DNA of 64,000 nt from an uncultured Candidatus Saccharibacteria bacterium (GTDB taxonomy: Bacteria; Patescibacteriota; Minisyncoccia; Phycocordibacterales; EsbW-18). Positions 37,892 through 57,821 of this stretch are shown piece after piece (the stretch's first letter is position 1; the number at the start of each line of letters is the position of its first letter). The stretch spans positions 7,048-71,047 of the forward strand of contig CAZFMQ010000001.1 in NCBI GenBank assembly GCA_964520295.1. The letters run 5' to 3'. Made by a program: the position numbers and the translations under genes. A model generated the notes under the pieces. The model ran no database searches and was not told where the DNA came from. It was given only the letters and a program-made list of their open reading frames with translations.

Positions 37892-38311
37892 ATGGCAAAA
37901 AAAGTTCTAAAAACCCTCAAATTGCAGATCCCCGGTGGTGCGGCAACTCCTGCGCCTCCATTGGGTGCAACGCTTGGTCAAGCGGGTGTTAACATTGGTG
38001 ATTTCGTTAATAAATTCAACACCGCCACTGCAGAGATGCGTGGAGAAACAGTGTCGGTATTGCTCACTGTATTTGAAGATCGAAGCTACGACTTCGTACT
38101 CAAAAGCCCACCAGCAACATCACTCTTGCTCAAAGCAGCAGGTATTCAGAAAGGTTCTGGCAATCCGCTCAAGATTGTGGGCAAGGTAACCAAAGCGCAA
38201 GTAAAAGAAATTGCAGAGCGCAAGTTGGTAGACCTCAACGCACACGATGTTGATGCCGCAATGAAAATCATTGAAGGTTCAGCTCGTAGTATGGGGATTG
38301 AAGTGCGTTAA
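37892..38311 (+). CDS. rplK: 50S ribosomal protein L11 (no rplA/rplJ/rplL follow)
   Basis: [26 protein letters not shown]…. Confidence 0.9.
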
Positions 38312-38480
38312 TCGCACTTCAATCCGCCGGAGGCCGACTGGGCCGAGGCAGGCCTGCGCAACTTTTCAGCAGAAAAGTATGTGCAGGTTGAGTGCGTTAA
38401 TCGCACTTCAATCCGCCGGAGGCCGACTGGGCCGAGGCAGGCCTGCACAACTTTTCAGCAGAAAAGTATGTGCAGGTTGA
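38303..38480 (+). repeat. Tandem duplication, 2 x 89 bp with 1 mismatch, beginning with the last 9 nt of rplK
   Basis: Unit GTGCGTTAATCGCACTTCAATCCGCCGGAGGCCGACTGGGCCGAGGCAGGCCTGC(G/A)CAACTTTTCAGCAGAAAAGTATGTGCAGGTTGA. Contains the hairpin CTTTTCAGCAGAAAAG. Confidence 0.85.
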
Positions 38481-38513
38481 GGTGAAATAAATTTCTAATC
38501 TGGAATTAAAAAA

Positions 38514-38556
38514 CACCCCCGCCATTCCGAAACTTCGGAATGGCGGGGGTGTTTGT
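38514..38556 (+). terminator. Rho-independent terminator
   Basis: CACCCCCGCCATTCCGAAACTTCGGAATGGCGGGGGTGTTTGTT. Confidence 0.5.
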
Positions 38557-38603
38557 TATGTGCTAGTGTAGCGCCAGATTATAACCCGACGAAAGGAGAC
38601 ACA

Positions 38604-39182
38604 ATGAATATCAGGCAGGAAACACGCATTTTTGAGCCACCGTTTGTGGCACAAAAGTACGTGCAGAGCATGGAAGATCTTGCGAGTATTCGCAAGGGCT
38701 ACGAGTTGCTGGGCAAGAAGGTTGTTCTCACACAAGGTGTGTGGGACCTCCTGCACCGTGGCCATCTGCGGTACCTGTACGCCGCCGCACAAATGGGCGA
38801 CGTACTCATTGTCGGTGTTGACTCTGATGCTTTGACGCGTAAGCGCAAGGGAGAAGGGCGACCGGCAGTGCCACAGGACGAGCGTATTGAAATGCTGGCA
38901 TTTGAGCATTTCATCAACCACATCGTTCTGCGGGATGTACAGCAGGACATCGGCACGCTCATCAAGACGGTGCGTCCCGATGTCCTGATTGTCTCGGAAA
39001 CGACCAAGGACTTCCCGAAAGAGGATGTTGAGGTCTACACCGAGTGCTGTGGACAGATTGTGCGGCTGGCGGAACAGGCGCGGACGAGTAGCACGGAGCG
39101 TCTGCGTCAGCAGGTAATTCAGGGGAAGCTGGAAGTGGTGAACCTTCTGGAAAATCTCATCAAGAAGGTGAGGGGTTCATGA
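38604..39182 (+). CDS. Cytidylyltransferase-like nucleotidyltransferase (HxGH family; TagD/RfaE-domain-II-like)
   Basis: VVLTQGVWDLLHRGHLRYL…VGVDSD; SD AAAGGAGACACA ahead of the ATG; 4-nt ATGA overlap with the next gene. Confidence 0.55.
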   Translation: MNIRQETRIFEPPFVAQKYVQSMEDLASIRKGYELLGKKVVLTQGVWDLLHRGHLRYLYAAAQMGDVLIVGVDSDALTRKRKGEGRPAVPQDERIEMLAFEHFINHIVLRDVQQDIGTLIKTVRPDVLIVSETTKDFPKEDVEVYTECCGQIVRLAEQARTSSTERLRQQVIQGKLEVVNLLENLIKKVRGS

Positions 39183-40009
39183 CACTTCCCATCGTCGCCT
39201 ACGTTCCCGTAATCCATCAGGGGTATCTGGAACTGTTCGCACAGTATCCGGAGTATCTCTATGTGCTAAACGAGGATGTACTCTCGCTGGTGCCGTATCT
39301 GTCGCGCGATGTGCGTGCGTGTAGACCCGAAAGTATTGTCGCGCAAGCACGCGGACTCGGTTTTTTCCGAGAGGTGCGTGTTGTGGGCAGGCAGTACCTC
39401 AAGTCGCTGAAAAAATCGGGCATGCACGTGGTGATGCCCGATGAAGACATTTCGCGCGAAGTGGCAAAGCGCTTCTCGCTTGAGGCACAGGTGCAGTTTG
39501 CAAGTGTGTTTCTGCGATACGACAGTACCGTGGTTGCAAAAGCATCTGTACCTAATCCGCATCACACGATCACGCAGGAACGCGCGCACGCCGATTTTAT
39601 GAAGCGTGCGCGCGCAGAGACGAAGCGGAGTCCTGACTGGTGGCGGCAAGTCGGTGCGGTTGCAGTGTGCAAGGACAGAACTGTGCTGTCTGCGCACAAC
39701 GAGCACTTTCCGGCACAGCAAACAGCGTACATCATGGGTGATCCGCGTACGCCGTTTGCTCCCGGAGAACGCACCGATATCTCTCTTGCAGGACACGCAG
39801 AACGAATGCTTATTGGTTCTGCGGCTCGACGAGGGATTTCGTTGCATGGTGCTGACCTGTACGTTACTACCTTTCCGTGCCCGGCATGTGCGATTCAAAT
39901 CGCCGCCACCGGATTCTCTCGGGTGTTCTACGAGGAGGGTTACTCGCTTGCGCAAGGAGATGAAATTCTCCGAGAGCACGGAGTAACGCTGACTCGGGTT
40001 GTTCTTTAG
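39179..40009 (+). CDS. Fusion protein: unknown N-terminal domain (~130 aa) plus a C-terminal dCMP/CMP deaminase zinc-binding domain
   Basis: GHAERMLI…LYVTTFPCPACAIQIA (H-A-E…P-C-x-x-C). Confidence 0.65.
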   Translation: MTLPIVAYVPVIHQGYLELFAQYPEYLYVLNEDVLSLVPYLSRDVRACRPESIVAQARGLGFFREVRVVGRQYLKSLKKSGMHVVMPDEDISREVAKRFSLEAQVQFASVFLRYDSTVVAKASVPNPHHTITQERAHADFMKRARAETKRSPDWWRQVGAVAVCKDRTVLSAHNEHFPAQQTAYIMGDPRTPFAPGERTDISLAGHAERMLIGSAARRGISLHGADLYVTTFPCPACAIQIAATGFSRVFYEEGYSLAQGDEILREHGVTLTRVVL

Positions 40010-40065
40010 AAAAAGCCCCCAACCGTGCGAACGGTTGGGGGCGTATTTTTTACAGAGACATACTG

Positions 40066-40536
40066 CTAGTCGTTGCCGATGGCTTTGCCACCGTACGAGC
40101 CAAGCCACAAGCTAATGCGCTTGGCCTGACCAGCGGCATGGTGGGGCGGCACGATGAGGTGCCCATGCAGATGCTGCACGGTGGATCCAGAGTATCCGGA
40201 TTCACCGAAGCGCATCAACAGTCCGCCACCGGGGATGTTGTATTCCGTGCATGCCCAGTGCATCAGCACACCAAATCCCGTCCACTCGTCGTCCACGAGT
40301 TCGGCGGGGGAAATGATGTGTCGCTTGGCGATGCAGAGCAAGTGCAACTGGCTCTGCTGGTATGGCCACTGGTTCTCGGTGAGCACCCAGTGGTCGTTTT
40401 CATACAGCACCGGTCGCGCATGGAACCGCAAAAGATGTTCGGGACAGAATGGACAGACCTTGTCTGCCACAATGTCCTCCATCACCTTGCGTTGTTCGTC
40501 CTCCCGCGCGTGTTCCAGGTTCACGTACTTGGTCAT
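40066..40536 (-). CDS. HIT-superfamily (histidine triad) protein with an N-terminal CxxC…H motif
   Basis: VQHLHGHLIV (HxHxHxx); CPFCPEH; SD GAGGAGGGG. Confidence 0.6.
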   Translation of the reverse strand: MTKYVNLEHAREDEQRKVMEDIVADKVCPFCPEHLLRFHARPVLYENDHWVLTENQWPYQQSQLHLLCIAKRHIISPAELVDDEWTGFGVLMHWACTEYNIPGGGLLMRFGESGYSGSTVQHLHGHLIVPPHHAAGQAKRISLWLGSYGGKAIGND

Positions 40537-40546
40537 GAACCCCTCC

Positions 40547-41485
40547 TCATACTGGTGTCGGGATTGTCATCGCAGGATGCGGATGATACTCCGAGAGTGA
40601 GAAGTGATACGGCGTGAACGCAAACAGATCCGTCACGCTCGTGTCCAACGACATGGTGGGGAATGGGCGCGGTGCGCGGTTGAGCAGTTCCTGTACGAAT
40701 GGAATCTGTTCCTCGTAGATGTGCACGTCAGACAACATGCACACCAACTCACGCATCCGATAACCGACGGTGTGCGCCACCATCATGCCGAAGGCCATGT
40801 ATTGCACGATATTGAACACGAGCCCGACGGGCGCATCAGCACTCCGCTGGTAGTGCACGATATCCAGTTCTTCCGTTTCCGGATAGGCGTGGATGTGGAT
40901 GTCGCCATGGCACGGTGCCACGACAACCTTCCGTTCGTTCGTCGGACCGGGAACCGCATACTGCGGCGCCCAGTTGCTGATGCGTAGGGTGCGCAGGTGC
41001 GGAGCGCGCTTGAGCAACTCCACCACATTGCGCACCTGGTTGACTGATGGTCCTTCGGCGGTGGGGAAATTCGTCCACACCGAGCCGTACGAACCGGGGC
41101 CGAGATCACCTTCGGGAAGTCCGAACACGTCGCACTTCTCCTTGGTAACCCAGCGCTTCCACCACGGGCACCCCCACGCCTTGAGTTCTTCGTGCGTGTG
41201 GGCGCCATGCAGGAAGCCGATGTGTTCGGCGAGCGCACCATGCAACAGGTTGCCGCCGAGATCGCGTTCGGTCATGAGTGGGAATCCGTTTGAGAGCGGA
41301 TACCGCAACACTTCACCGACCAGCTTCAGCGCGGACTTTCCCTGAATGGGATAGACCGTCTGCCCGCTGGACAAAATACTGTCCAACAGGTCGTGGTACT
41401 GCCAATCTGCCTTTCTTTCCATGATATGTCTCCTGTAAAGGTACGGTTCTGGTGGCACTATACGTGTGTGACGTGCGTGCGTCAA
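40547..41485 (-). CDS. Diverged thymidylate synthase (ThyA)-family enzyme
   Basis: EGDLGPGSYGSVW (ThyA has GDLGPVYG.QW); VVAPCHGD (PPCH, catalytic Cys); VHYQRSADAPVGLVFNIVQY (YQRS.D…PFNI.SY); SDVHIY (GD.HIY); RAPRPFPT (REPRP.P); YHPHP. The dUMP-binding DRTGTGT block is replaced by PIQGKSALKL. Confidence 0.75.
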   Translation of the reverse strand: MTHARHTRIVPPEPYLYRRHIMERKADWQYHDLLDSILSSGQTVYPIQGKSALKLVGEVLRYPLSNGFPLMTERDLGGNLLHGALAEHIGFLHGAHTHEELKAWGCPWWKRWVTKEKCDVFGLPEGDLGPGSYGSVWTNFPTAEGPSVNQVRNVVELLKRAPHLRTLRISNWAPQYAVPGPTNERKVVVAPCHGDIHIHAYPETEELDIVHYQRSADAPVGLVFNIVQYMAFGMMVAHTVGYRMRELVCMLSDVHIYEEQIPFVQELLNRAPRPFPTMSLDTSVTDLFAFTPYHFSLSEYHPHPAMTIPTPV

Positions 41486-41523
41486 TCAATGCGCTCTGGG
41501 CATTTTTTGTGTAGGATGGGGAT

Positions 41524-43209
41524 GTGAATACAAGCAAGCAAGTTCTCATAGAGGCGGTACAGGCAGTGTGCGTAGAGCTCGGCTATCCCGAGGTGTCGTT
41601 TGTGATTGAGCGACCTGCCGATATGCAACATGGCGATTGGGCGTGCAACGTGGCACTGCTCCTTGCAAAGCATGTTGGTAAAAAGCCACGAGACATTGCC
41701 GAGACAATTGCAGGGGCATTGCGTGCTCGTTCGCTTCCACACATCGCGTCTATTGAAATCGCGGGCGCAGGTTTCATCAATGTGCGTTGCACACCTGCAT
41801 ATTTCAAAGAAGCACTCGCACGCACGCTCGCCAATACCACAGACATGACGAACCCTGCATTCGCGGGAAAAACAGTGATGGTGGAATACACACAACCAAA
41901 TCCATTCAAACCATTTCACATCGGACACTTGATGAGCAATACCATCGGCGAGACGATTGCGCGTGCGTATGCTGATGCGGGTGCAACAGTTATACGTGCA
42001 AACTATCAAGGTGATGTTGGTTTGCACGTTGCAAAAGCACTGTGGGGCATGATGCAAAAAAATGTAGATCCATCAGATATTGCAGGTATCGGTACGGCGT
42101 ACGCATATGGGCATGAGCAGTATGAGACCAATGAAACTGCGAAAGCAGAAATCATTGCACTGAACAAAAAAGTGTACGCGCGCGACGAAAGCATTATGGA
42201 TACGTACACCGCAGGGCGCACCGAGACGCTACAGGCATTTGAAAAAATTTACGCACTGCTTGGCACCACCTTTGACGAATACTTTTTTGAAAGCGAGGTG
42301 TGGGAGCAGGGTATGACACTCGTGCACGAGGGAGTGGAGAAGGGCATTTTTGAAAAGAGTGATGGCGCCATTGTGTTTCCGGGGGAGAAATATGGATTGC
42401 ACACACGTGTCTTCATTACACGCGAGGGTATTCCAACGTATGAAGCAAAAGAATTAGGGTTGTGTTTGGAAAAAACACAACGTCGCACCTTTGATGTTTC
42501 AGTGACCATCACCGCTGTGGAGCAAGAGCAGTACTTCAATGTGGTGTTCAAAGCATTTGAAGTGTTGCGTCCAGAGTTTGTAGGGAAGTTTCTACACGCG
42601 CACCACGGCATGATGGTGTTGCCATCAGGGAAAATGGGTTCGCGCAAAGGCAATGTCATCACCGGTGAATCACTTATTGATGACATGATTGCGCGTGCAA
42701 AAGAAAAAGTATCGGAGCGCGGCGTGTCTGATGCCGAGCAGATTGCACAGGATGTCGCTGTCGGTGCCATTAAGTACATGGTGCTCAAACAAGGTTTGGG
42801 TAAAAACATCACGTTTGATATTGAGAAGTCACTTTCATTTGAAGGAGACTCAGGACCATATCTGCAGTACACGTACACACGCGCCAATGCGGTATTGGAA
42901 AAAGCGCGTGACAACGGTATTGTACCTGCGCTCAATGAACAAACAGAAACGACTGATGTAGTGCGTCTCTGCGAGCGTTTTGCCGAAGTAGTGCGTGGTG
43001 CGCTTGAAAAACAGTACGCACCGAATGATCTCGTGCACTACCTCATTGCAGTGGCGTCGGCATTCAATAGTTGGTACGCACAAGAAAAAATCGTAGACAC
43101 CGACAATATGGATGTCTCTGCACACCGCACGGCGGTTACACAGGCGGTGGCATCCATCCTCTCGCACGGCCTGTCTCTGCTTGGCATCCCAACACCATCA
43201 AGAATGTAA
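41524..43209 (+). CDS. argS: Arginine--tRNA ligase
   Basis: HIGH-class I (PFHIGHLMSN); DALR anticodon-binding C-terminus. Confidence 0.85.
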   Translation: MNTSKQVLIEAVQAVCVELGYPEVSFVIERPADMQHGDWACNVALLLAKHVGKKPRDIAETIAGALRARSLPHIASIEIAGAGFINVRCTPAYFKEALARTLANTTDMTNPAFAGKTVMVEYTQPNPFKPFHIGHLMSNTIGETIARAYADAGATVIRANYQGDVGLHVAKALWGMMQKNVDPSDIAGIGTAYAYGHEQYETNETAKAEIIALNKKVYARDESIMDTYTAGRTETLQAFEKIYALLGTTFDEYFFESEVWEQGMTLVHEGVEKGIFEKSDGAIVFPGEKYGLHTRVFITREGIPTYEAKELGLCLEKTQRRTFDVSVTITAVEQEQYFNVVFKAFEVLRPEFVGKFLHAHHGMMVLPSGKMGSRKGNVITGESLIDDMIARAKEKVSERGVSDAEQIAQDVAVGAIKYMVLKQGLGKNITFDIEKSLSFEGDSGPYLQYTYTRANAVLEKARDNGIVPALNEQTETTDVVRLCERFAEVVRGALEKQYAPNDLVHYLIAVASAFNSWYAQEKIVDTDNMDVSAHRTAVTQAVASILSHGLSLLGIPTPSRM

Positions 43210-43255
43210 TATCCACACAGAAAGCGCCCGCGTATGCTGTATACTGCTGATATCT

Positions 43256-43675
43256 ATGGAGATGGACGCAACACCACGCAGAATGACAGAGGCGCCTTCA
43301 CGACGCGGGCGCGGCATCAAAAAAGTATTCTTTTTCCTCGTATTATGCGCACTTCTTGTCGCAGGTATCTGGTACTGGCTTTCATTGCCCGCAACTGGTT
43401 CATCTGAAGCAACTGCACGTCAAACAGAAAGTGCAGTAGAGCGTGTGTCTAAGGTGATGGTGTTACCACAGGACGAACAACCTGCAATCGGCACAATTAT
43501 TGATCCGTATAAATTCCAAGGAGGGGTATTTTTTGACGTAGTACAAATGGGGGATCTTGTGCTCATGTATCCCGAGCGCGGTATGCTCATTGTGTACAGT
43601 GCCGCACATAAAAAAATTGTAGGTGTTGCACCATTTGTCATGAATACACCGCCAGGCATCTCGGTTACCGAGTAA
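43256..43675 (+). CDS. Hypothetical membrane-anchored protein
   Basis: TM VFFFLVLCALLVAGIWYWL; short extracytoplasmic domain; ends 3 nt before the next gene. Confidence 0.35.
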   Translation: MEMDATPRRMTEAPSRRGRGIKKVFFFLVLCALLVAGIWYWLSLPATGSSEATARQTESAVERVSKVMVLPQDEQPAIGTIIDPYKFQGGVFFDVVQMGDLVLMYPERGMLIVYSAAHKKIVGVAPFVMNTPPGISVTE

Positions 43676-43677
43676 TC

Positions 43678-44916
43678 TTGCTTCTCAACAGGGTATGTAG
43701 CGAGTTTGCATACGTATTTTACAATAGAGTTACTGTGATCCCGCTGTCGTTATATTATTTGAAGATAGCATCTCTATCTGTTGCCATTGTGCTCGTGGCG
43801 ATAGCAATTTCTCCATTCATCATTCACAGTCAGGAGGGAGCAGAATCAGCAGAAGATTTTGTAGAAGAAGTGTCAGAAGAAATTGTTGAGGATGAAGTAC
43901 AGGAGGTACCAGCAGAACCAGAATCAGAGCCAGTTCCGGAAGAGCCCGAAGAAGAGCACACAGAGGAAGCCACCGATACAGAAGAGGTGGTTATTACTGA
44001 TGTCGGCAACGAAGCAACTACGACAGATGGTACAGAAGTGCTACACATTCCTTTTCCACAGGAGGAAGCAACCACAACTGCTTCAAGTAGTACTGAAACA
44101 TCAGAGAGCGCAACAAGCACCGCCTCCTCCACCGCATCAGACGTTGCAACAAGCACCGCATCTTCCACCGAATCAGACGTTGCGACGAGCACCGCGTCTT
44201 CATCAGAAACATTTTCAGAAGATCCATTTGCAACGTCAGTGGAATTGACGCCATTGACGGAAGCAGAAATAGCAACACCTGAAATACAACAAGACCTTGC
44301 ACAACTTGAAATATTTACAACGACCACCGACGCACTGCCAACAGATGATGCCACCACCACTGCGTCTACCACAGGGGATGAGTATCTAGAGATTGTATTG
44401 GAAGAATTGCCGCTTGAAGAGGAGATAGTGGAAGAAGAATATGTTTTGGCGCCACCATCACCAGAACCTCCACCACTGTATGAATCGCCATGGCAACGAT
44501 ATCTCAATAAGGTATTTGCGCTTGATGATGAGGCACGGCATACATGCACGTTTGAAAGTGATGTAAATCTTACTGAAGGTGGCACACAAGACGTAACGCT
44601 ATTGTTATCTAATCGAAACGGCTCTATGGGTGAGCTAGAAGTAGGGAATACACCTAATGGTGTGAGTGTGTTATTCAATGGTGAAGATAGTTATGTACAA
44701 TTTTGGTCAGCGGGACCAGAGACGCGATTGAGTATAGAAGTAAAACGTACGCTGTGGGCACAAGAGGGAATGTTCAATGTCCCTGTATTTTATACGAAAG
44801 GTTCATCTACCACTGTATGTCAGCTTATTATTATCAATGGTGTGTATCCGCAATCAGAGAGCGCCACGCAAGAGGTTCTTATTACCGATAGTGTCTCTGA
44901 AACGAAAGGAGAGTAG
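43678..44916 (+). CDS. Secreted/anchored surface protein: N-terminal TM, long acidic S/T-rich low-complexity stalk, C-terminal ~130-aa beta-rich domain
   Basis: TM IASLSVAIVLVAIAISPFII; EE/PE-rich; ATSTASSTASDV-type repeats; folded C-terminal domain. Confidence 0.45.
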   Translation: MLLNRVCSEFAYVFYNRVTVIPLSLYYLKIASLSVAIVLVAIAISPFIIHSQEGAESAEDFVEEVSEEIVEDEVQEVPAEPESEPVPEEPEEEHTEEATDTEEVVITDVGNEATTTDGTEVLHIPFPQEEATTTASSSTETSESATSTASSTASDVATSTASSTESDVATSTASSSETFSEDPFATSVELTPLTEAEIATPEIQQDLAQLEIFTTTTDALPTDDATTTASTTGDEYLEIVLEELPLEEEIVEEEYVLAPPSPEPPPLYESPWQRYLNKVFALDDEARHTCTFESDVNLTEGGTQDVTLLLSNRNGSMGELEVGNTPNGVSVLFNGEDSYVQFWSAGPETRLSIEVKRTLWAQEGMFNVPVFYTKGSSTTVCQLIIINGVYPQSESATQEVLITDSVSETKGE

Positions 44917-44922
44917 TACGAT

Positions 44923-47900
44923 ATGCAGTATAAGCGCATCATACAAAATAGTATGTTTATTGTGTACAGTGCGGTACTGGTATTTTTTGCGCTACCTGCA
45001 ATGGCCGCAACGTTTACGATGCAGACGGGATATTACGTAGGTGATGGTACAGATAATCGCGTTATCTCAGGACTTGGCATAACACCGAATGTGGTGTTTG
45101 TGAAAGATGATACCAATAATGGAGACGACGGTATTATTATGCGCACCAGTGCAATGGCCGGTGATTCATCTGCTAAACTGGCCGAAGCAGAAGCCAATGC
45201 CGCCGATCTCGTACAAGCACTTGCGTCAGGACAATTCACCATCGGTGCTGAGGCAGACATCAATGCAGTAGATCAAATGTATTACTGGACTGCGTTCGGT
45301 GGCAGTGATTGTACATCCACGGGTACGTTGTGTGTGGGTTCATATTTGGGCAGTGGTGATCTTTCACGCAATGTGAACGTGGGGTTTGCGCCCGATTTGG
45401 TGATTGTCAAACGAGCGGGCGCAACAGCAGGTGTGTGGACTTCATCGGCAATGCCCGCCAATACTACCGCTTTTTTCCATGGTGCCGCATCAAGTGCCGG
45501 TATCATCACGGCATTGGGTGCTACTCATTTTACAGTCAGTGCAAACGCAGCTGTTAATACTTTGGACAGTACATATTACTTTGTTGCATTCAAACAGGTT
45601 AGTGGCGCTATGGATGTGGGCACGTATACAGGGAACGGTAACGACAACAGAAATATAACATCATCTGATGACGCAGGGCTGACTTTTCAGCCGGACTTTG
45701 TGTGGGTCAAATCTTCAGCTGCTACTATAGCAGTACTTTCACAAACTGAACATTATGGTGATCGTACATACACAGCAGGAGACATATCATCTTTGTCAAA
45801 CAGCATACAAGAGTTACGTTCTGCTGGCGGTTTTCAGGTAGGAAATGAAACAACATATAACTCAGTTAATACAACAGGGAATACCTACTATTACGCGGCA
45901 TTCAACGGTGCGGTTGCAAAAAATCCTGCAAGCGAAACCTATACCATGAAATCCGGCTCATATACAGGTACCGGTTCGGGATTTTCTATTGGAGGTATTC
46001 CCTTTACACCCGACTTGGTCATTATTAAACACAATAATCAAGCAACTGATCAATACGCTGTTTTTCGTACAAGTCAGATGGGGGGCGATAACACATTGCA
46101 GTTTGCTACAGCAGCTTCTTTTACGGGTGGCATTACCTCATTGAATGCTAGTGGTTTCTCCGTTGGGACGGATGCTCGTGTTAATACTTCTGGTGATACA
46201 TACTACTGGACTGCATTTGGCAATGCCACGCGTCCTGACAAATCCGGTGGTGCAAATAATTTTGCAGTTGGTGCGTATATAGGCACGGGTGTAGATGGTT
46301 CTTCCGTAACGCGTCTCCCCATCGGTCCTGATTTATTGGTGGTAAAGCGCAGTGATAGTACAAACAATGGTGTATGGAGAACCAGTTCAGTGGCGGGTGA
46401 TTCATCTTTGTTTTTTCACAATGCAGCATCTGCGGCAAACTATATTCAGGCACTGACAAGTGATGGTTTTGAGCGCGGAAATAATGGATCAGTCAATACT
46501 GGTAGCGGTCGTTACAGTTATTTTGCATTTGCAGAGGGTGATGATTTTGTGCAGAACTCGTATACAGGTAATGGCAGTACGCAAAATATTGCTGCATACA
46601 ATTGGCAACCAGATATGGTATGGACGAAGAAAGGGACGGGAGGTACTGCGCGTGGTGGGTTATTACGTACGTCTGTAGTGAGTGGTGATGCATCATGGCC
46701 ATTTCTCAATCAAGCAACCCTTTCTAATGGTTTTACTAACCTACTCTCTGACGGTTTTTCATTAGGTTCATCGGTGGATGCCAATGAAAGCGGGTACACC
46801 TACTATTACGCGGTATGGGATGGTAAGAAGTATGGTCAATCAGGATTTCGTTTTTTTGAAAATACAGATAGCACAAGCGTGGGTACACCTCTTGCAAATG
46901 CAAATACGTCTGCAACACTGGGTGCTGTCGGTGATACATTTCGTCTTCGTATGTTGATGCACCTGACGGGAGGTAATTTATTACAAGGTAATGGTGGGTT
47001 CATATTGCAATACGCACAACCAAGCCCTTTTGATACTACTTGTAGTGGTCTGATGACATGGAATGACGTAGATACAGACACGGCAATTGCATTTTATGAT
47101 AACCCTAGTGCCACGGATGGTGCCGCACTGACAGCAACGAGTACTGATCCAACAAATGGTCTCTACACCATCGTCAATCAGAATTATCTAGAATCTCAAG
47201 GAAGTGGTTTTACCAATGGTATTGCTACCATCGCAGATATCCAAGATGGTAAATGGGATTTTTCGCTCGTGGACTACAGTGCTTCCGCCAAAACCACATA
47301 TTGTTTTCGTATGCGTCGCGCCGACACAGTATTATTTGAAGATTACACGGTACCGGCGGTGCGTATCACCACAGGAGCAACAGGAAGCCATGTGCCAACT
47401 GTCTCTAATGTATCTATTGATGAAGGGGCTCCGTCCATTACCTTGACTGAAGGTACGACCAAAAATGTGCAATGTACCGCAACAGCTACCGATACTGATG
47501 GGTATAGTGATATTACTGCTGTGACGGCGCACTTACACCAATCGTCAATCGATGTGAGTGCGCCCGCCGATGATAATCATCACTACATTGTTTCGGGCGA
47601 TTCGCAATGTGTACCGTCAAGTGGGTCAGGCAATTCCGAGGAATACACATGTACATTTGCGGTACAGTATTTTGCCAATCCAACGGATGCAGGTTCACCG
47701 AACGTGTTGGATGAGTGGGTGTGTTCTGTGTTTGCGTATGACGGTACATCCACCAGTACGGTGGCGACAGATACCACAGAGATAGATTCATTGATTGCGC
47801 TATCTGTTGATCCAGAAAGTATTGATTATAGTGAGGGTGGCCCACTGCTTCCTGAAGATATCTATGTACTTGTAAATAAAATGGATGTAGTCAACACAGG

Positions 47901-48183
47901 TAATCGGGACATTGACCCGCAGATTTCAGGCACACTTATGACAGGTGATGTACATAGTGGCACAATCGCGGTAGGGGAGCAGAAGTATGAAAATTTTGCT
48001 TTCGACTATGCCACTGAGGGCATCACACTGACGACCACGCCCACAACGATGGATTTGGCACTTCCACAGCGCACGGGTGGGGTAGTGTCAGATATACTCC
48101 ATTGGGGTATTCAAATTCCTTTGGGGACAATACCCGACACATACACAGGTGTAAATACACTGACTGCAGTGCCGGCGATATAA
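44923..48183 (+). CDS. Giant secreted protein (1086 aa): signal peptide, six tandem ~105-aa repeats, CARDB-like Ig domain, C-terminal LPQRT…WGI module
   Basis: Signal peptide VLVFFALPAMAA. Repeats share Y.G.G…F.PD.V.VK…W(R)TS.M.GD.S…GF.VG…VN…YY(Y/W).AF. C-terminus reads …VNKMDVVNTGNRDIDPQISGT…DLALPQRTGGVVSDILHWGIQIPLG. Confidence 0.6.
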   Translation: MQYKRIIQNSMFIVYSAVLVFFALPAMAATFTMQTGYYVGDGTDNRVISGLGITPNVVFVKDDTNNGDDGIIMRTSAMAGDSSAKLAEAEANAADLVQALASGQFTIGAEADINAVDQMYYWTAFGGSDCTSTGTLCVGSYLGSGDLSRNVNVGFAPDLVIVKRAGATAGVWTSSAMPANTTAFFHGAASSAGIITALGATHFTVSANAAVNTLDSTYYFVAFKQVSGAMDVGTYTGNGNDNRNITSSDDAGLTFQPDFVWVKSSAATIAVLSQTEHYGDRTYTAGDISSLSNSIQELRSAGGFQVGNETTYNSVNTTGNTYYYAAFNGAVAKNPASETYTMKSGSYTGTGSGFSIGGIPFTPDLVIIKHNNQATDQYAVFRTSQMGGDNTLQFATAASFTGGITSLNASGFSVGTDARVNTSGDTYYWTAFGNATRPDKSGGANNFAVGAYIGTGVDGSSVTRLPIGPDLLVVKRSDSTNNGVWRTSSVAGDSSLFFHNAASAANYIQALTSDGFERGNNGSVNTGSGRYSYFAFAEGDDFVQNSYTGNGSTQNIAAYNWQPDMVWTKKGTGGTARGGLLRTSVVSGDASWPFLNQATLSNGFTNLLSDGFSLGSSVDANESGYTYYYAVWDGKKYGQSGFRFFENTDSTSVGTPLANANTSATLGAVGDTFRLRMLMHLTGGNLLQGNGGFILQYAQPSPFDTTCSGLMTWNDVDTDTAIAFYDNPSATDGAALTATSTDPTNGLYTIVNQNYLESQGSGFTNGIATIADIQDGKWDFSLVDYSASAKTTYCFRMRRADTVLFEDYTVPAVRITTGATGSHVPTVSNVSIDEGAPSITLTEGTTKNVQCTATATDTDGYSDITAVTAHLHQSSIDVSAPADDNHHYIVSGDSQCVPSSGSGNSEEYTCTFAVQYFANPTDAGSPNVLDEWVCSVFAYDGTSTSTVATDTTEIDSLIALSVDPESIDYSEGGPLLPEDIYVLVNKMDVVNTGNRDIDPQISGTLMTGDVHSGTIAVGEQKYENFAFDYATEGITLTTTPTTMDLALPQRTGGVVSDILHWGIQIPLGTIPDTYTGVNTLTAVPAI

Positions 48184-48331
48184 TAACGCTACATAGCACG
48201 AGCAGTATTGTTGCCCTCTCATTATCCACAGCAGTACAACACGAGAAAACGGCATTTGCTATACTTTGCGTATGTCCAGTCCATGCTGATAGCGCGCTGG
48301 CCGTACTCTTATTCTGTTTCATAATCACCCC

Positions 48332-49216
48332 ATGAAAAAGACAGGGCTCATACTCGCTTCTTTGTTGCTCTCTACAGCATTTATTGTGTTTGCGGATGAT
48401 GTATCCACACAAGTGACTGTAGGTAACGCAACGCCATCAGCAACCAACCCCACGTTCAATGGGGGAGGTGCCATTACGCTTACTGAAAACACCACAACGA
48501 CGGTGTACGCTACCACCACAGTCACTGATACAAACGGGTGCGAAACAATTGTAGGAGTAACCATGGATTTTTATCGATCAGGTGTTGGCACGACATCATG
48601 TGACACCATTGGTGAAGCAGATGAAAACTATTGTTACCCACGTGTATCTTGTTCGGTCGCGGGCGGTTCATGTACTGGCCCTTCTGACACCAGTGCCGAT
48701 TATGTATGTTCTGTAGATTTGGAATACTATGCCGACCCTACTGACAGTGGTACATATGCTGCAGAAATCTGGAACGCAACAGTATATGCGGGTGATGGTA
48801 TTGCAACGACAACAGGTAACACGGGTACTGCTGAAGTAAACACACTTTTGGCGCTTGATGTAACAAGTTCAATCAACTACGGTACGCTCTCACCAAACAC
48901 TGATACGGGTGCTGATAATGCAACAACCACAGTGACAAATACCGGTAACGGTGCAATAGACCCAGAAGTTTCAGGTACCGACATGACTTCTGTTGGTGAC
49001 ACTATTACGGTTGGCTATCAAGAGTACGCAACCACCTCATTCACATATGGTGCGGGTACAGATCTTACTGGATCGGGTGTGCGTGCAGAAATTGATTTGC
49101 CACAACGAACTACGAGTGTGGTACAGGCACTGCTCTTGTGGGGTATCGGCATTCCCGCAGGTCAACCATCGGGTACATACACAGGTACCAACACATTTAC
49201 TGCCATTGCCGACTAG
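48332..49216 (+). CDS. Secreted 294-aa paralog of the C-terminal third of the giant protein
   Basis: Signal peptide MKKTGLILASLLLSTAFIVFADD. Aligns with 44923-48183 residues ~790-1086, including TVTNTGNGAIDPEVSGT and IDLPQRTTSVVQALLLWGIGIPAG. Confidence 0.6.
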   Translation: MKKTGLILASLLLSTAFIVFADDVSTQVTVGNATPSATNPTFNGGGAITLTENTTTTVYATTTVTDTNGCETIVGVTMDFYRSGVGTTSCDTIGEADENYCYPRVSCSVAGGSCTGPSDTSADYVCSVDLEYYADPTDSGTYAAEIWNATVYAGDGIATTTGNTGTAEVNTLLALDVTSSINYGTLSPNTDTGADNATTTVTNTGNGAIDPEVSGTDMTSVGDTITVGYQEYATTSFTYGAGTDLTGSGVRAEIDLPQRTTSVVQALLLWGIGIPAGQPSGTYTGTNTFTAIAD

Positions 49217-49241
49217 CATTACCTAAATATTTGCGACTGTC

Positions 49242-50186
49242 ATGAGCACTACACTTGTTAAATACAGCACAAAAATACTTCTCATGTGTGTGCTTGTGTG
49301 CGCGCCATTATTGACGCGTGCGGGATTTGGCGTCTCTCCAGGTCTTATTGAAGAATTACACCTTGTGCCAGGTACCCACATGGAAAAGACATTGTATCTC
49401 GTGCAGGGTGATCCAAAGCTAGATTTGCCTGCAACTGTTGCAGTTGAATCAGCAGATATTGCAAACTGGCTGACATTTCCTGATGGTACCTCGTTTATCA
49501 TTCCTGCTGGTGTACAGCAATATCCGTTACGCGTTGCATTTGATGTGCCGGTAGATGCACCTGTAGGTGACTATACTGCGTACATTCGTGTTACGACGCT
49601 TCCAAAACAAGATCCTGAAAATCAAATCACCATTGCACTCGGTGGACGCATTGACGTGCACCTTGTTGTTGGTACCGATATTGTAGTGGATTGGGATGTG
49701 CCACATATTGACGTGCTTGATGTAAAAGAGGGGGATGATCCAGAGGTGGTGCTGACAATTGATAACCGTGGTAATACGCAGGCAGGACCAGAGCGTGTAT
49801 CGTTTGATCTGTATAACAAGTATGGTGATGTGCGTTTGGGGTATGCAGAGACAGCGCAGGTATCCCGCGTACCATCGTTTACACGCAAGGCGCTTAAAGT
49901 AACATTTCCAATTGATATTCGTTTAGCGCCAGGGGAGTACTGGGGTCATGTGCGTGTGTATGGACGCGATGGTGTACTTGTACGCGAACTGAAAACACCA
50001 TTTGATGTAACGGTAAAGACCTTTGAAGAGAAGTATGGCGACCTCATTGTTGTCGGCGGTGCACTTCTTATCCTCTTGCTATGCATTGCGCTGGTTCGTT
50101 CAATTATTAAACACCGCCGCGCGCACAAGCAGTTGATGCATCATCAGCAGAACAACGTGCCACCACCGCCAATGCGCGTTTCCTAA
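49242..50186 (+). CDS. Signal-peptide protein with two predicted beta-sandwich domains, a C-terminal TM anchor and a basic tail. Topology resembles CscA/DUF916.
   Basis: Signal peptide ending LLTRAGFGVSPG. C-terminal TM LIVVGGALLILLLCIALV then RSIIKHRRAHK. Confidence 0.5.
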   Translation: MSTTLVKYSTKILLMCVLVCAPLLTRAGFGVSPGLIEELHLVPGTHMEKTLYLVQGDPKLDLPATVAVESADIANWLTFPDGTSFIIPAGVQQYPLRVAFDVPVDAPVGDYTAYIRVTTLPKQDPENQITIALGGRIDVHLVVGTDIVVDWDVPHIDVLDVKEGDDPEVVLTIDNRGNTQAGPERVSFDLYNKYGDVRLGYAETAQVSRVPSFTRKALKVTFPIDIRLAPGEYWGHVRVYGRDGVLVRELKTPFDVTVKTFEEKYGDLIVVGGALLILLLCIALVRSIIKHRRAHKQLMHHQQNNVPPPPMRVS

Positions 50187-50188
50187 GT

Positions 50189-51112
50189 ATGTTGTGGCGA
50201 CGTCTCCTCCTGTCGCTTATATGTATCGGCAGCGCAGCGCTCTGTAGCGCTACGGCGTTTGCCGACGATACCACCGTGACGGTGGAAGTCGTGATGCGTC
50301 AATGTTCAGATGGGATAGACAACGACGGCGATGCACTTATTGATTATCCTAATGATCCAGATTGTGATTCGCCAAATGATGACAGTGAAGGTGATGGAGT
50401 ACCACCCACTTCTGATGACGATGATGGTGGCGGTCGTGCATCATCATCGTATCGTCGTGGCACGCTGATACAATCGGCTATTCTATTTCGTGGAATAGCG
50501 CAACCGAACACATGGGTATTTGCATTTGAAGGTGATGACATGATTGGTATGGTGCAGGCTACAGTAGACGGCACATTCACGATGGGGCCAATAGCATTTT
50601 CTCCTGCACAAACGATATTTACGTTGTACGCATTTGACCCCGTGACAGGCACAACCACCACACATGCATTTCCGCTCACCATTCCTCGCTACTCAGTGGT
50701 AACCATAAGTGGCATTGCGCTGGGTATCGCACCTTTGGCGACAACAACCACAGCGACACTCCCGCCAATTTTATTTTTAGATGTTGTTGCCACTGACACA
50801 GCACACACAGAGTATCCAATACAATCACCCACAGAGAGTGTGCGTCCTGTACTCCCCACAGTTGTGACGCCCGATGCCGTGTATAGAGCATCATTGTTCG
50901 TAACGTCCGTGCGCGCACTTCTACAGACGCTCTATGATGGGTTCTTTGCGTGCCCAACACCGTACGACGTACGCGTCTTTTTAGCATCAGTGCAATTTTT
51001 GCAACCGTTGACACCGTTTATCCCATGCACCGTGTTGTGGTTTTCTGACCCGTTCTCGGCGCGTGTATTTGATGCTATAGTCGGTGTGTATGACAGCATC
51101 AGAAGGCGTTGA
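50189..51112 (+). CDS. Secreted protein with a MopE-like Cys/Asp metal-binding motif
   Basis: Signal peptide; CSDGIDNDGDALIDYPNDPDCDSPNDD (the C.DG.DND.D..ID…D.DC motif). Confidence 0.5.
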   Translation: MLWRRLLLSLICIGSAALCSATAFADDTTVTVEVVMRQCSDGIDNDGDALIDYPNDPDCDSPNDDSEGDGVPPTSDDDDGGGRASSSYRRGTLIQSAILFRGIAQPNTWVFAFEGDDMIGMVQATVDGTFTMGPIAFSPAQTIFTLYAFDPVTGTTTTHAFPLTIPRYSVVTISGIALGIAPLATTTTATLPPILFLDVVATDTAHTEYPIQSPTESVRPVLPTVVTPDAVYRASLFVTSVRALLQTLYDGFFACPTPYDVRVFLASVQFLQPLTPFIPCTVLWFSDPFSARVFDAIVGVYDSIRRR

Positions 51113-55141: not shown

Positions 55142-55234
55142 TCGCCGGTGTCGTGGTGTAGTTGACAAAAAGTGTATTTTAGGATATACTGTACACCAGG
55201 TGTTGTTTCTAAACTAACAGAAAGGAGAAAAAGA

Positions 55235-56068
55235 ATGCGAAGAGAAGAGTTGGAGGAGTCGGAACCGTTTCCTCCGTACCCTACGGATGAGTCGGATGCC
55301 ATGAGCGCCCAGGAGACCGTCCAGTGGGCGGTCATCCTGGTCGTAATCATCGGCCTCATCATCTATGTGATGATGAAGCCGACGCCGGCCGAAGGACAGG
55401 AGTTTTCGATGTCTTACGAGAGTAAGTACATCGACTACAACGGAGAGCTGCTTCATGACGACCCTGTCGGTCGTCTGAAGTATTTCCAGCCGTTGTCCCA
55501 GAACAACTGTCTCTATCTCTACAGCGAAGTGCTGTGGGACGGGGATAGCTGGGGCAACTCGTACGGCGACGAAGCTGGGCTGTATCTCGGATGCTACTTC
55601 GCATCCGAGAACACGAGTTGGTTCGTCGACGCGGGTGCGGGTTATGTCTGGGTTTCCAAGCTGGAAGGCGAGGAAATCCCAGACATCATCAACCCGTACG
55701 TGGAGCTCGGTCGGTCATTCGACCGCAACGAGGAGGGAGCGTCATTTTCGCTCTCTCTCGTTGCGGATGGATACCATCCAACCGAGAGTTGGCTGCAAGA
55801 TGGGTGGTTCACCCGCCTTCGCACAGTCAGCATGGTGCCTCTGGGATCGCGCGCGAATCTGCGCGTGTTCTTGGAGGGCACGCACGATCCAGGCGTATAT
55901 GGCCTGGATGAGGCGTACATCGGTTTGGCTGACCTGTCTGTTCAGTTTTCCCTTGGGGAAAACTGGACGGTGGCACCAGGGTTCAAGCGGTCCGTTCTAC
56001 TCTCGGATGTCTCGGATTACCGAGATGACGAGAGTTCGTGGATGCTCACGTTCTCGTACAGTCGTTAG
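55235..56068 (+). CDS. Hypothetical beta-strand-rich membrane-anchored protein in a G+C-rich insert
   Basis: SD AAAGGAGAAAAAGA ahead of the ATG. TM VQWAVILVVIIGLIIYVMM. Alternating-hydrophobic strands SFSLSLVADGY, NLRVFLEGTHD, WMLTFSYSR. Confidence 0.35.
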   Translation: MRREELEESEPFPPYPTDESDAMSAQETVQWAVILVVIIGLIIYVMMKPTPAEGQEFSMSYESKYIDYNGELLHDDPVGRLKYFQPLSQNNCLYLYSEVLWDGDSWGNSYGDEAGLYLGCYFASENTSWFVDAGAGYVWVSKLEGEEIPDIINPYVELGRSFDRNEEGASFSLSLVADGYHPTESWLQDGWFTRLRTVSMVPLGSRANLRVFLEGTHDPGVYGLDEAYIGLADLSVQFSLGENWTVAPGFKRSVLLSDVSDYRDDESSWMLTFSYSR

Positions 56069-57137: not shown

Positions 57138-57821
57138 ATGAATCCAAAAAGCTTTTTTAGAGAAGACTTAAATCTAATGAACCGATGGTGGCACCGGTTG
57201 TTTCTTGTGATTTTTATTGTTGCATTTATTTCTATTGTGATAGCTGTTATCTCAAGTACGGTAAACGATAACCAGTTACCAAAATACAGAAAGGTTGGAA
57301 TGCTATCTGATCGAATGACAAGTAAAGTGCAGCTCATAGGAAATCTGGTAAAGCCGAATGAAAAAATTGCTGTTTATGAACATAACCTATATGGCTCGTA
57401 TCTTGGCAAGGATTTTTATGACGGGAATGGAGGCTGGCTATTGAAACAAGAATATTATTGTGCAAAAAATATTTCCGATCATGTTGAAGAAATATCAGAA
57501 ATAACTGGAGTAAAAAACTATAAAGGCAACTCCGAGTTGGTTTCATTGGATGAATTCAAATCTTATCTTGCAAAACAAAATGCTGACTGCATCGAGAACC
57601 TTAAGCTGGATGAAATTAATTTTTTAGGTAACATCCGTAATACTTTGTCTTGGGGTCTTGAAGCTGATGATATGGCTGTTTGGCAAATATCTGTATTGAA
57701 AACTATTGTTGCAGTTTTGTTACCAATATTGTTTATAACACTAGGTTTTATACTACTCCTTGTAATCTATTATAAAGTTTTCTTATTTATTGTTTTTGGT
57801 AAATCTCAAGGAGTCAATTAG
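57138..57821 (+). CDS. Hypothetical membrane protein (N- and C-terminal TM helices), AT-rich
   Basis: Markedly lower G+C than the surrounding window. TMs LFLVIFIVAFISIVIAVI and VAVLLPILFITLGFILLLVIYY. Confidence 0.4.
   Translation: MNPKSFFREDLNLMNRWWHRLFLVIFIVAFISIVIAVISSTVNDNQLPKYRKVGMLSDRMTSKVQLIGNLVKPNEKIAVYEHNLYGSYLGKDFYDGNGGWLLKQEYYCAKNISDHVEEISEITGVKNYKGNSELVSLDEFKSYLAKQNADCIENLKLDEINFLGNIRNTLSWGLEADDMAVWQISVLKTIVAVLLPILFITLGFILLLVIYYKVFLFIVFGKSQGVN

Follow-up and report, generated by a model that had tools for sequence, protein, structure and literature searches.

We describe here a block of four genes at positions 38604-41485 of a 64,000-nt stretch of contig CAZFMQ010000001.1 from an uncultured Candidatus Saccharibacteria bacterium (hereafter the window, meaning the whole stretch that was analysed), which we consider likely to be the local copy of a thymidylate-supply module that runs through the Patescibacteria, or candidate phyla radiation (CPR), rather than a foreign island, its peculiar G+C content and Shine-Dalgarno (SD) sites going with a probable displacement of the module gene by gene. 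The genes encode a nucleotidyltransferase (NTase), a deaminase fused to an additional N-terminal domain, a HIT-superfamily protein and a diverged ThyA. An original prediction, made from the letters of the region, had read it as a G+C-rich island of these four genes, in two translationally coupled pairs with strong SD sites, and had offered two accounts of it: a horizontally acquired salvage module leading from dCMP through dUMP to (h)mdUMP, or a nucleotide- or DNA-modification cassette of the kind seen in phage hypermodification systems.

In a scan of one genome per species, with synteny read in the best 80 species-level loci, the fused deaminase was found in at least 511 species genomes, all of them CPR apart from evident mislabels, and the order NTase (+), deaminase (+), HIT (-), ThyA (-) was invariant in the 80 loci wherever the contig was long enough. 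Protein identity falls to 35-60% across phylum-level divergence while this gene order stays fixed and the flanking genes vary; nusG-rplK adjoins the module in about half of the 80 loci. Closer to the window, in the Campbellbacteria genome GCA_045863475, rplK and argS likewise enclose all four genes in this order, and the module occupies the same site in two sister genomes (loci L009 and L010). Loci L001 and L005-L008 also preserve the tight spacing of the genes, which overlap by 4 nt or lie about 10 nt apart.

The neighbours of the module point towards folate-dependent thymidylate metabolism: among the 80 loci, dihydrofolate reductase (DHFR) is present in 55, serine hydroxymethyltransferase (SHMT) in 27 and dUTPase in 24, and distant CPR loci add DHFR, SHMT, dUTPase, deoC or a (d)CMP-kinase-like P-loop protein beside the module. 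In L007 (9394-9948) and 12 other CPR loci, the P-loop kinase that adjoins the module is similar to archaeal (d)CMP kinase and to the N-terminal kinase domain of the anti-phage dCTP deaminase (NF041025, E 7e-11). We found no description in the open-access literature of the four-gene cluster, of the fused deaminase domain or of the loss of two phosphate-binding arginines from ThyA that is set out below; such a ThyA, an NTase-like domain fused to a deaminase and the obligate partnership with an NTase and a HIT protein all appear to be undescribed.

Layout of the module and its proteins

ORF calls and profile matches agree with the original prediction on the presence of all four genes, which lie in the window as follows.

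38559-38603, + strand: region upstream of operon 1, with SD AAGGAG (38593-38598) and a putative promoter block
38604-39182, + strand: NTase gene, gene 1 of operon 1 (192 aa; PF01467)
39179-40009, + strand: deaminase fusion gene, gene 2 of operon 1 (276 aa; PF00383 at residues 137-251)
39179-39553, + strand: N-terminal domain of the deaminase protein (residues 1-125), without a Pfam match and with a predicted NTase-like Rossmann fold
39554-40009, + strand: dCMP-deaminase-type zinc domain (HAE and PCPAC motifs; PF00383)
40015-40042, both strands: bidirectional intrinsic terminator, an inverted repeat with a 12-bp stem (9 G-C pairs) and T-runs on either strand
40066-40536, - strand: HIT-superfamily gene, gene 2 of operon 2 (156 aa; CPFC and HLHGH motifs)
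40547-41422, - strand: thyA, gene 1 of operon 2 (291 aa; PF00303)
41423-41485, - strand: thyA leader, with SD AGGAGA (41434-41429) and a promoter-like TTGACG-17-TATAGT (41485-41457)

The predicted coupling within each pair holds, but the pairs had been described as head to head and in fact run tail to tail, converging on the shared terminator. In operon 1 the deaminase start overlaps the NTase stop in ATGA (39179-39182); in operon 2, 10 nt (40537-40546) separate thyA from the HIT gene, whose SD, GAGGAGGGG (40548-40540), lies across the thyA stop codon. The deaminase and HIT starts (39170-39183 and 40532-40545) have one and the same 14-nt initiation region, GAGGGGTTCATGAC, and the first genes of the two operons, NTase and thyA, share AGGAGACA at theirs; these matched initiation regions suggest matched translation of both operons. 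A block 5' of the NTase gene, gtgctagtgt(a/t)gcgccagattataac, is also kept in the sister genomes L009 and L010 and is likely to be a promoter, although the consensus promoter scan did not call it. For thyA, the start is most likely ATG 41422, behind AGGAGA, and not TTG 41485, because the latter belongs to the -35 hexamer of TTGACG-17-TATAGT. The 291-aa product is the database protein P0001, and the leader, ...tttacaggagacatat.ATG, recurs almost unchanged in L001. An Rfam search of the intergenic regions for RNA elements returned nothing above threshold.

Thymidylate synthesis, which is also a drug target, is textbook biochemistry, and the four phosphate-binding arginines of ThyA are treated as near-invariant. 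The window ThyA clearly belongs to the family (PF00303, 196.6 bits, E 5.6e-58, cutoff 24.3; TIGR03284, 141.6 bits, cutoff 108.35), falling below the cutoffs of the narrower NF00249x equivalogs. It is 74% identical to the ThyA of a Campbellbacteria metagenome-assembled genome and then 55-62% identical to hundreds of Patescibacteria proteins; on whether its nearest relatives are phage or bacterial, all of the nearest homologs come from Patescibacteria. Residues were numbered as in E. coli ThyA, using a reference sequence whose numbering agrees with the canonical C146, R166, N177, H207 and Y209, and were compared across 120 ThyA homologs and across 74 module-associated ThyAs, the latter comprising two sequence subtypes.

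The alignment confirms the catalytic Cys and the dUMP-specifying Asn that had been read from the sequence: the window protein keeps C146 (APCH), H147, E58, W80, W83, Y94, R126, R166, S167, D169, N177 (FNIVQY), H207 and Y209. C146, N177, H147, E58, Y94 and D169 are invariant in both sets, and W80, W83, R126, R166 and S167 are also kept across the 120 homologs; a few of the 51 subtype-B ThyAs vary, with H207 replaced by Gln in 4 and Y209 by Phe in 3. At the folate site, W80, W83, G173 and F176 are conserved, with K48 replaced by Arg and L172 by Val, and the C-terminus (...PHPAMTIPTPV) aligns end to end with that of the E. coli enzyme (...PHPGIKAPVAI) and so is of canonical length.

Among the phosphate-binding arginines, R126 and R166 are kept in the window ThyA, and R21 and R127 are replaced by Ile and Thr, respectively. 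This loss holds throughout the subfamily. R21 is replaced in all 74 module ThyAs (always by Ile in the window's subtype) and in all 120 homologs; R127 is replaced in all 74 module ThyAs, by Thr in 71 and by Ser or Ile in the other 3, the corresponding count in the homolog alignment being 116 of 120. The double loss spans both subtypes. The DRTGTGT loop, which had already been noted as lost, is rewritten as P-I-[HQ]-G-E-K-A in the CPR subfamily and reads QGKSA in the window. An entire radiation, represented by at least 511 species genomes, would accordingly carry a ThyA that lacks two of its phosphate-binding arginines. R21 (R23 in the L. casei enzyme) is said to be, besides R127', the other arginine at which replacement is tolerated. 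For the R127' position, an active natural Vibrio thymidylate synthase (TS) without the equivalent residue has been reported, which its authors regard as the first natural loss among the four phosphate-binding arginines and for which they cite Kawase et al. 2000 and Santi et al. 1990 on the tolerance of that position (PMC6005164). The R127' equivalent is replaced in VpTS, from Vibrionales, Alteromonadales, Aeromonadales and Pasteurellales (PMC6005164), as it is in the CPR ThyA, but by Gly rather than Thr, and the CPR subfamily differs further in lacking R21 and in its rewritten DRTGTGT loop.

We judge the window ThyA most likely to be a true thymidylate synthase, that is a methylase and not the hydroxymethylase that had been considered, because of DHFR fusions in its subfamily, the DHFR, SHMT and dUTPase neighbours, the conserved residues and the C-terminus of E. 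coli length. The fusions (P0012, P0027 and P0048) belong to the same CPR subfamily and place DHFR at the N-terminus, leaving the TS C-terminus free. A hydroxymethylase releases tetrahydrofolate, not dihydrofolate, and would thus have no need of DHFR; furthermore, dCMP hydroxymethylases carry Asp where the window ThyA keeps N177. The fused proteins resemble the bifunctional DHFR-TS of protozoa, although they are bacterial and the window ThyA itself is monofunctional.

The C-terminal part of the fused deaminase is matched by PF00383 (E 9.4e-17, 61.2 bits, cutoff 25), carries the zinc motifs HAERM and PCPAC, and has the dCMP deaminases of T4, S-TIM5 and S. mutans as sequence matches. The top 15 Foldseek matches in the PDB are all dCMP deaminases, those of S-TIM5, T4, S. 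mutans, human and PBCV-1 among them, with TM-scores to the target of 0.63-0.86. The domain does not reach the ComEB equivalog TIGR02571 (32.9 bits against a cutoff of 219). From these matches we infer a dCMP-type deaminase, which would convert dCMP to dUMP.

The N-terminal ~130 residues of the same protein match no Pfam family. Their AlphaFold2 model (pLDDT 88.5) has a five-stranded Rossmann-like fold, for which the best Foldseek match is the cytidylyltransferase domain of Fom1 (5x3d; E 6e-3, probability 0.99, TM-score 0.54), with HldC, PPAT, FAD synthetase and TagD among the further matches; the invariant residues are H13-x-G15-Y16, P87-D-E89 and R113. As modelled, the domain is a degenerate HIGH-type NTase fold, in which the second His is gone (HxGY instead of HxGH) and the C-terminal motif is missing; for these reasons it is probably non-catalytic. 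Searched against 1.84 billion representative proteins, a profile of the domain drew 595 matches, nearly all of them fusions of 275-300 aa or fragments. Comparison of the domain with the adjoining NTase by hhalign, with a single sequence and with the family profile, placed HxG[HY] in register but gave no significant sequence homology.

The NTase appears to be an intact HIGH-motif nucleotidyltransferase, most like HldC and domain II of RfaE. It is matched by PF01467 (E 3.8e-13, 50.2 bits, cutoff 21) and TIGR00125 (51.6 bits, cutoff 27.7) and lies below every equivalog cutoff, including that of the heptose-1-phosphate adenylyltransferases (TIGR02199; 90.5 bits against 181.5); its best solved structure is HldC (5x9q, E 8.6e-16). 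The window protein carries the motifs LHRGH and ARTSSTERLR, and HxGH and QATTST-R-IR are kept in 117 homologs. With HldC/RfaE domain II, TagD, ECT and the Fom1 cytidylyltransferase it shares the fold, the HxGH motif and a C-terminal (R)TxxST-type motif, whereas the N-terminal domain of the deaminase, with HxGY and no C-terminal motif, shares the fold only. In contrast to HldC, the NTase scores below the equivalog cutoffs and is tied to the deaminase; its neighbours are rplK and the deaminase gene, with no heptose or teichoic-acid genes nearby.

The HIT protein scores 27.6 bits with DcpS_C (cutoff 24) and 17.2 bits with PF01230, below the cutoff of 21.5, and in the window carries the triad as HLHGHLI, with a CPFC zinc-knuckle-like motif upstream. 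Across the family C28, C31, H122 and H124 are invariant, and the position of the third His is occupied by Gln in 34, His in 26 and Asn in 11 of 72 orthologs. The H-x-H core and upstream CxxC are shared with the known HIT branches (Hint, Fhit, GalT, DcpS and aprataxin), and the frequent Gln at the third position with GalT; however, the family matches no one branch specifically (E ~1e-6 to 1e-3 to all). Its profile finds generic HIT proteins in the PDB at E ~4e-6 and matches Hint, Fhit and GalT weakly. On this evidence it may be regarded as a CPR family of its own, one that is always downstream of ThyA.

Composition of the module and probable exchange among CPR lineages

The module is compositionally distinct from its surroundings, in agreement with the predicted contrast to the neighbouring genes. 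Its G+C content of 0.566 exceeds that of the remaining window (0.476) and ranks first among 612 sliding windows of the same length; the G+C content at third codon positions (GC3) of its genes is 0.56-0.75, against 0.435 +/- 0.058 for the 49 other genes (z 2.2-5.3); and its tetranucleotide correlation to the rest of the window is 0.51, against 0.83 +/- 0.06 for 112 other segments (z -5.5), none of which is as deviant. The SD sites behave in the same way. A match of at least 5 nt at the correct spacing precedes all four module genes and just 1 of 31 others (hypergeometric ~1e-4), bearing out the claim that the core genes lack what each module gene has. The sole exception among the 31 is orf1086 (44923), with AAGGAG; genes outside the module, ribosomal protein genes included (starts at, e.g., 5948, 7146, 12186, 18878 and 37892), have A/T-rich upstream regions without an SD, so that the genome seems to be largely SD-independent. 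A 16S rRNA gene, from which the anti-SD could be read, was not present in the 64-kb window.

An assembly chimera was considered as a source of this contrast and rejected: a separate Logan assembly (L004) matches window positions 38452-42813 at 100% identity, a span that includes the whole module and its right junction. A recent insertion island was rejected as well. The module stands at the same site in relatives, DNA identity to the closest relative is 67-80% through flanks and module alike with no block of recent transfer, and no tRNA gene, flanking direct repeat or integrase ORF was found near the module.

The compositional signature is instead confined to one clade. Over 63 CPR loci the module-minus-flank difference in G+C is +0.009 +/- 0.028, and the three largest excesses, in the window (+0.097), L010 (+0.084) and L009 (+0.061), all belong to one Campbellbacteria-like clade, in which the SD sites of the module genes are also present; these sites are absent in distant CPR genomes. 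Within this clade the module genes have separate histories. The flanking proteins are roughly equidistant among the window, L009 and L010 (ArgS 64-72%), but the window NTase is 41-45% identical to those of L009 and L010, which are 71% identical to each other, and the ThyA of L010 is 41-45% identical to those of the window and L009, which are 74% identical to each other. In L010 (4891-6801) a DHFR gene sits between the HIT and ThyA genes, and ThyA is of the other CPR subtype (41% to the window's) yet equally G+C-rich (GC3 0.78). Because the G+C and SD signature is restricted to the clade and the identities are mosaic against equidistant flanks, single module genes would appear to have been displaced, at a fixed locus, by alleles from other CPR lineages. 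No donor lineage could be named among the 80 loci, where the best identities outside the clade are 47-60%. Such swapping of core metabolic genes among CPR at a fixed locus could mislead composition-based searches for islands.

Taken against these results, the idea of a horizontally acquired salvage module survives in part: a route from dCMP through dUMP to thymidylate is retained, foreign insertion and a hydroxymethylase are contradicted by synteny, even divergence and the link to DHFR, and horizontal exchange persists in the form of exchange among CPR. Similarly, a host-like composition and ordinary syntenic homologs had been named as signs that would speak against an island; the homologs and their synteny are indeed ordinary, and the composition, by G+C, codon usage (GC3) and tetranucleotides, is clearly deviant.

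Proposed function of the module

Unable to synthesise nucleotides de novo, CPR bacteria depend on other cells, and the module can for this reason be seen as part of their minimal core. In the function we propose, the deaminase would convert dCMP to dUMP and ThyA, despite the absence of R21 and R127' from its subfamily, would methylate dUMP to dTMP with methylene-tetrahydrofolate, by which a scavenging cell would gain thymidylate from cytosine deoxynucleotides. Pyrophosphate bonds of the NMP-phosphate-X kind are made by HIGH-motif NTases and cleaved or transferred by HIT enzymes, the HIT protein here being a putative nucleotide hydrolase or transferase. Since the one family makes and the other breaks pyrophosphate bonds, the NTase and HIT protein most likely act at the 5'-phosphate end of pyrimidine nucleotides entering or leaving the pathway, where an NMP-phosphate conjugate may be made and broken. 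Through its NTase-like N-terminal domain, the deaminase may dock on the NTase or the NTase product, or sense either of them. The roles of the NTase and HIT protein could bring to light a step or control point of deoxynucleotide salvage that has gone unrecognised.

The closest known arrangements are the thyA/folA/dCMP deaminase sets of Gram-positives (comEB/dcd type) and the cd-td-frd set of T4, with which the module shares the two core reactions and the catalytic residues; DHFR and SHMT are likewise linked in most CPR cluster members. The CPR module differs from these sets in adding the NTase and HIT protein, a fixed convergent four-gene layout and the N-terminal domain of the deaminase, in a ThyA without R21 and R127', and, in the window, in the absence of DHFR near the module.

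Several observations weigh against the thymidylate-supply reading or against parts of it. DHFR, SHMT, dUTPase, thyX and a second thyA were all absent from the 64-kb window, which leaves the recycling of dihydrofolate unaccounted for, and L009 also has no DHFR near the module. For the joint loss of R21 and R127' there is no characterised precedent, and the enzyme might act on another substrate. The likeness between the N-terminal domain and the NTase is at the level of the fold only (Foldseek E 6e-3; hhalign E 0.037, probability 1.4%), and the assignment of the NTase and HIT protein to the 5'-phosphate end draws on gene linkage and family chemistry only. As to the displacement of genes, GC3 stays near 0.7 in three lineages of the clade though their module DNA is only 67-71% identical, a persistence that a single old transfer fits poorly because neutral amelioration should have erased the signal; it may have been kept up by selection, by replacement on several occasions or by biased gene conversion at a recombination hotspot.

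It is conceivable, though in our view unlikely, that the NTase and HIT protein are unrelated housekeeping enzymes, serving for example sugar-nucleotide synthesis or the general clean-up of nucleotide phosphoramidates and merely sharing operons with the thymidylate genes in compact genomes. The best named relatives of the NTase are indeed heptose-1-phosphate adenylyltransferases, the HIT profile matches generic Hint-type proteins only, and CPR genomes are densely packed. However, chance operon sharing sits poorly with a gene order that is invariant at phylum-level divergence while the flanks vary, with conserved translational coupling, with an NTase-like domain of the deaminase that exists solely in this fusion, and with the 14-nt initiation region shared by the second genes of both window operons.

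A more far-reaching alternative, to which we assign a decidedly low probability, is that the pathway runs on a nucleotide handle: the NTase would conjugate a cytosine deoxynucleotide to a phosphate-bearing partner (adenylylation of dCMP and the coupling of dCTP with an X-phosphate are examples), the deaminase would read the handle with its NTase-like domain and produce the uracil conjugate, ThyA would methylate the conjugate in a pocket opened by the loss of R21 and R127', and the HIT protein would release dTMP or dTDP. The gene order mirrors this order of steps (NTase-deaminase, ThyA-HIT), the bond-making chemistry of HIGH NTases and the bond-breaking chemistry of HIT proteins match it, and the frequent Gln in place of the third HIT His recalls GalT-type transferases. 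Additionally, every module ThyA lacks the two phosphate-binding arginines, and the deaminase has gained a nucleotide-binding fold seen nowhere else, whose best structural match is Fom1, an enzyme that works in a pathway with a CMP handle. Yet the scheme is purely inferential, and we know of no such conjugated thymidylate intermediate. DHFR, SHMT and dUTPase as neighbours suit a conventional route through dUMP. On a putative viral contig the NTase-deaminase pair occurs in the absence of ThyA-HIT, so that this pair can work alone. R21 and R127' are moreover the two dispensable arginines (for R127', PMC6005164), so that their loss requires no new substrate. If true, the handle would represent a previously unknown, phylum-wide variant of a highly conserved pathway, and it might keep dUMP out of the kinase pool.

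The phage-type account in the original prediction, namely a recent island from a phage or non-CPR donor with a ThyA-like hydroxymethylase for nucleotide or DNA hypermodification, is already contradicted and very improbable. Its appeal lies in the strong composition deviation, in SD use unlike that of the host, in the loss of the DRTGTGT loop and in the fact that dCMP deaminase and ThyA homologs are common in phages; both in phage thymidine hypermodification (PMC8989533) and with the T4 and SPO1 hydroxymethylases, a ThyA-fold enzyme likewise stands beside a dCMP deaminase. Against this, the nearest homologs are all CPR, with a subfamily at 55-74% identity compared with at most 33% to any of 3600 phage records, and a search of 50,697 phage records likewise gave no identity to the window ThyA above 33%; the fused deaminase occurs in 1 of 2.9 million IMG/VR contigs; and PHROGs and PADLOC scans of the module proteins returned generic family matches only, on which grounds a phage origin was rejected. 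The hypermodification partners, a 5-hmdU (5-hydroxymethyldeoxyuridine) DNA kinase and glycosyl- or aminoacyl-transferases, were missing from the ORFs of 36-44.5 kb, as were phage genes. As detailed above, the locus is also syntenic in relatives, diverges to the same degree as its flanks, has no integrase, tRNA gene or flanking direct repeat, and belongs to a family fused to or linked with DHFR, which a hydroxymethylase would not need.

The single IMG/VR locus (L089 5471-6831; UViG 3300037483_001116, 62% G+C) encodes an NTase and a fused deaminase among phage-like neighbours, with no HIT or ThyA gene within 6 kb. No ATG, GTG or TTG occurs in its deaminase frame after the NTase stop and ahead of the conserved HAGY motif, so that translation may begin in an unusual way or the two frames may be joined by a frameshift.

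Equally improbable is an anti-phage nucleotide-depletion system of the dCTP-deaminase type: although the best NCBIfam and PADLOC models for the deaminase core are NF041025 (E 4.4e-16) and PDLC02373 (E 7.8e-17), and the P-loop kinase that some CPR genomes carry beside the module is similar to the kinase domain at the N-terminus of the anti-phage dCTP deaminase, NF041025 covers ~60 residues (203-265) of the zinc-binding core and scores 58.8 bits where the cutoff is 400, a kinase domain is missing from the window protein, whose N-terminal domain has the fold of an NTase rather than of a P-loop kinase, the structural neighbours of the whole deaminase domain are dCMP deaminases, the gene is core, syntenic and linked to ThyA, DHFR and SHMT, and the other three module proteins match no defence model.

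Other features of the window

Upstream of the module, the last codons of rplK carry an insertion of two tandem 89-bp units (38302-38481; 98% identical), which provides a new stop codon at 38309-38311 and displaces the old end of the gene, ...gaggtgaaataa, to ~38478-38489; the insertion is absent from L009 and L010. The window has no further copy of the 89-bp unit, which is predicted to form three hairpins (-44.5 kcal/mol) and has no match in Rfam. Between this insertion and the NTase gene lies an unusually long perfect hairpin (38511-38554) with a 20-bp stem containing 12 G-C pairs, in place of which L009 and L010 have a shorter terminator hairpin.

Downstream, ~8 kb between argS and ileS (~43200-51100) is occupied by genes for large proteins of secreted or surface type, including one 1086-aa DUF7483 protein and several proteins without a Pfam match; this stretch would be a lineage-specific insertion, since the Campbellbacteria relative L001 has only one small ORF there. 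Two further ORFs are compositional outliers, namely a 298-aa ORF at 55172-56068 with a GC3 of 0.67 and a weak, sub-threshold match to PagL, and a 227-aa ORF at 57138-57821 with a G+C content of 0.33.

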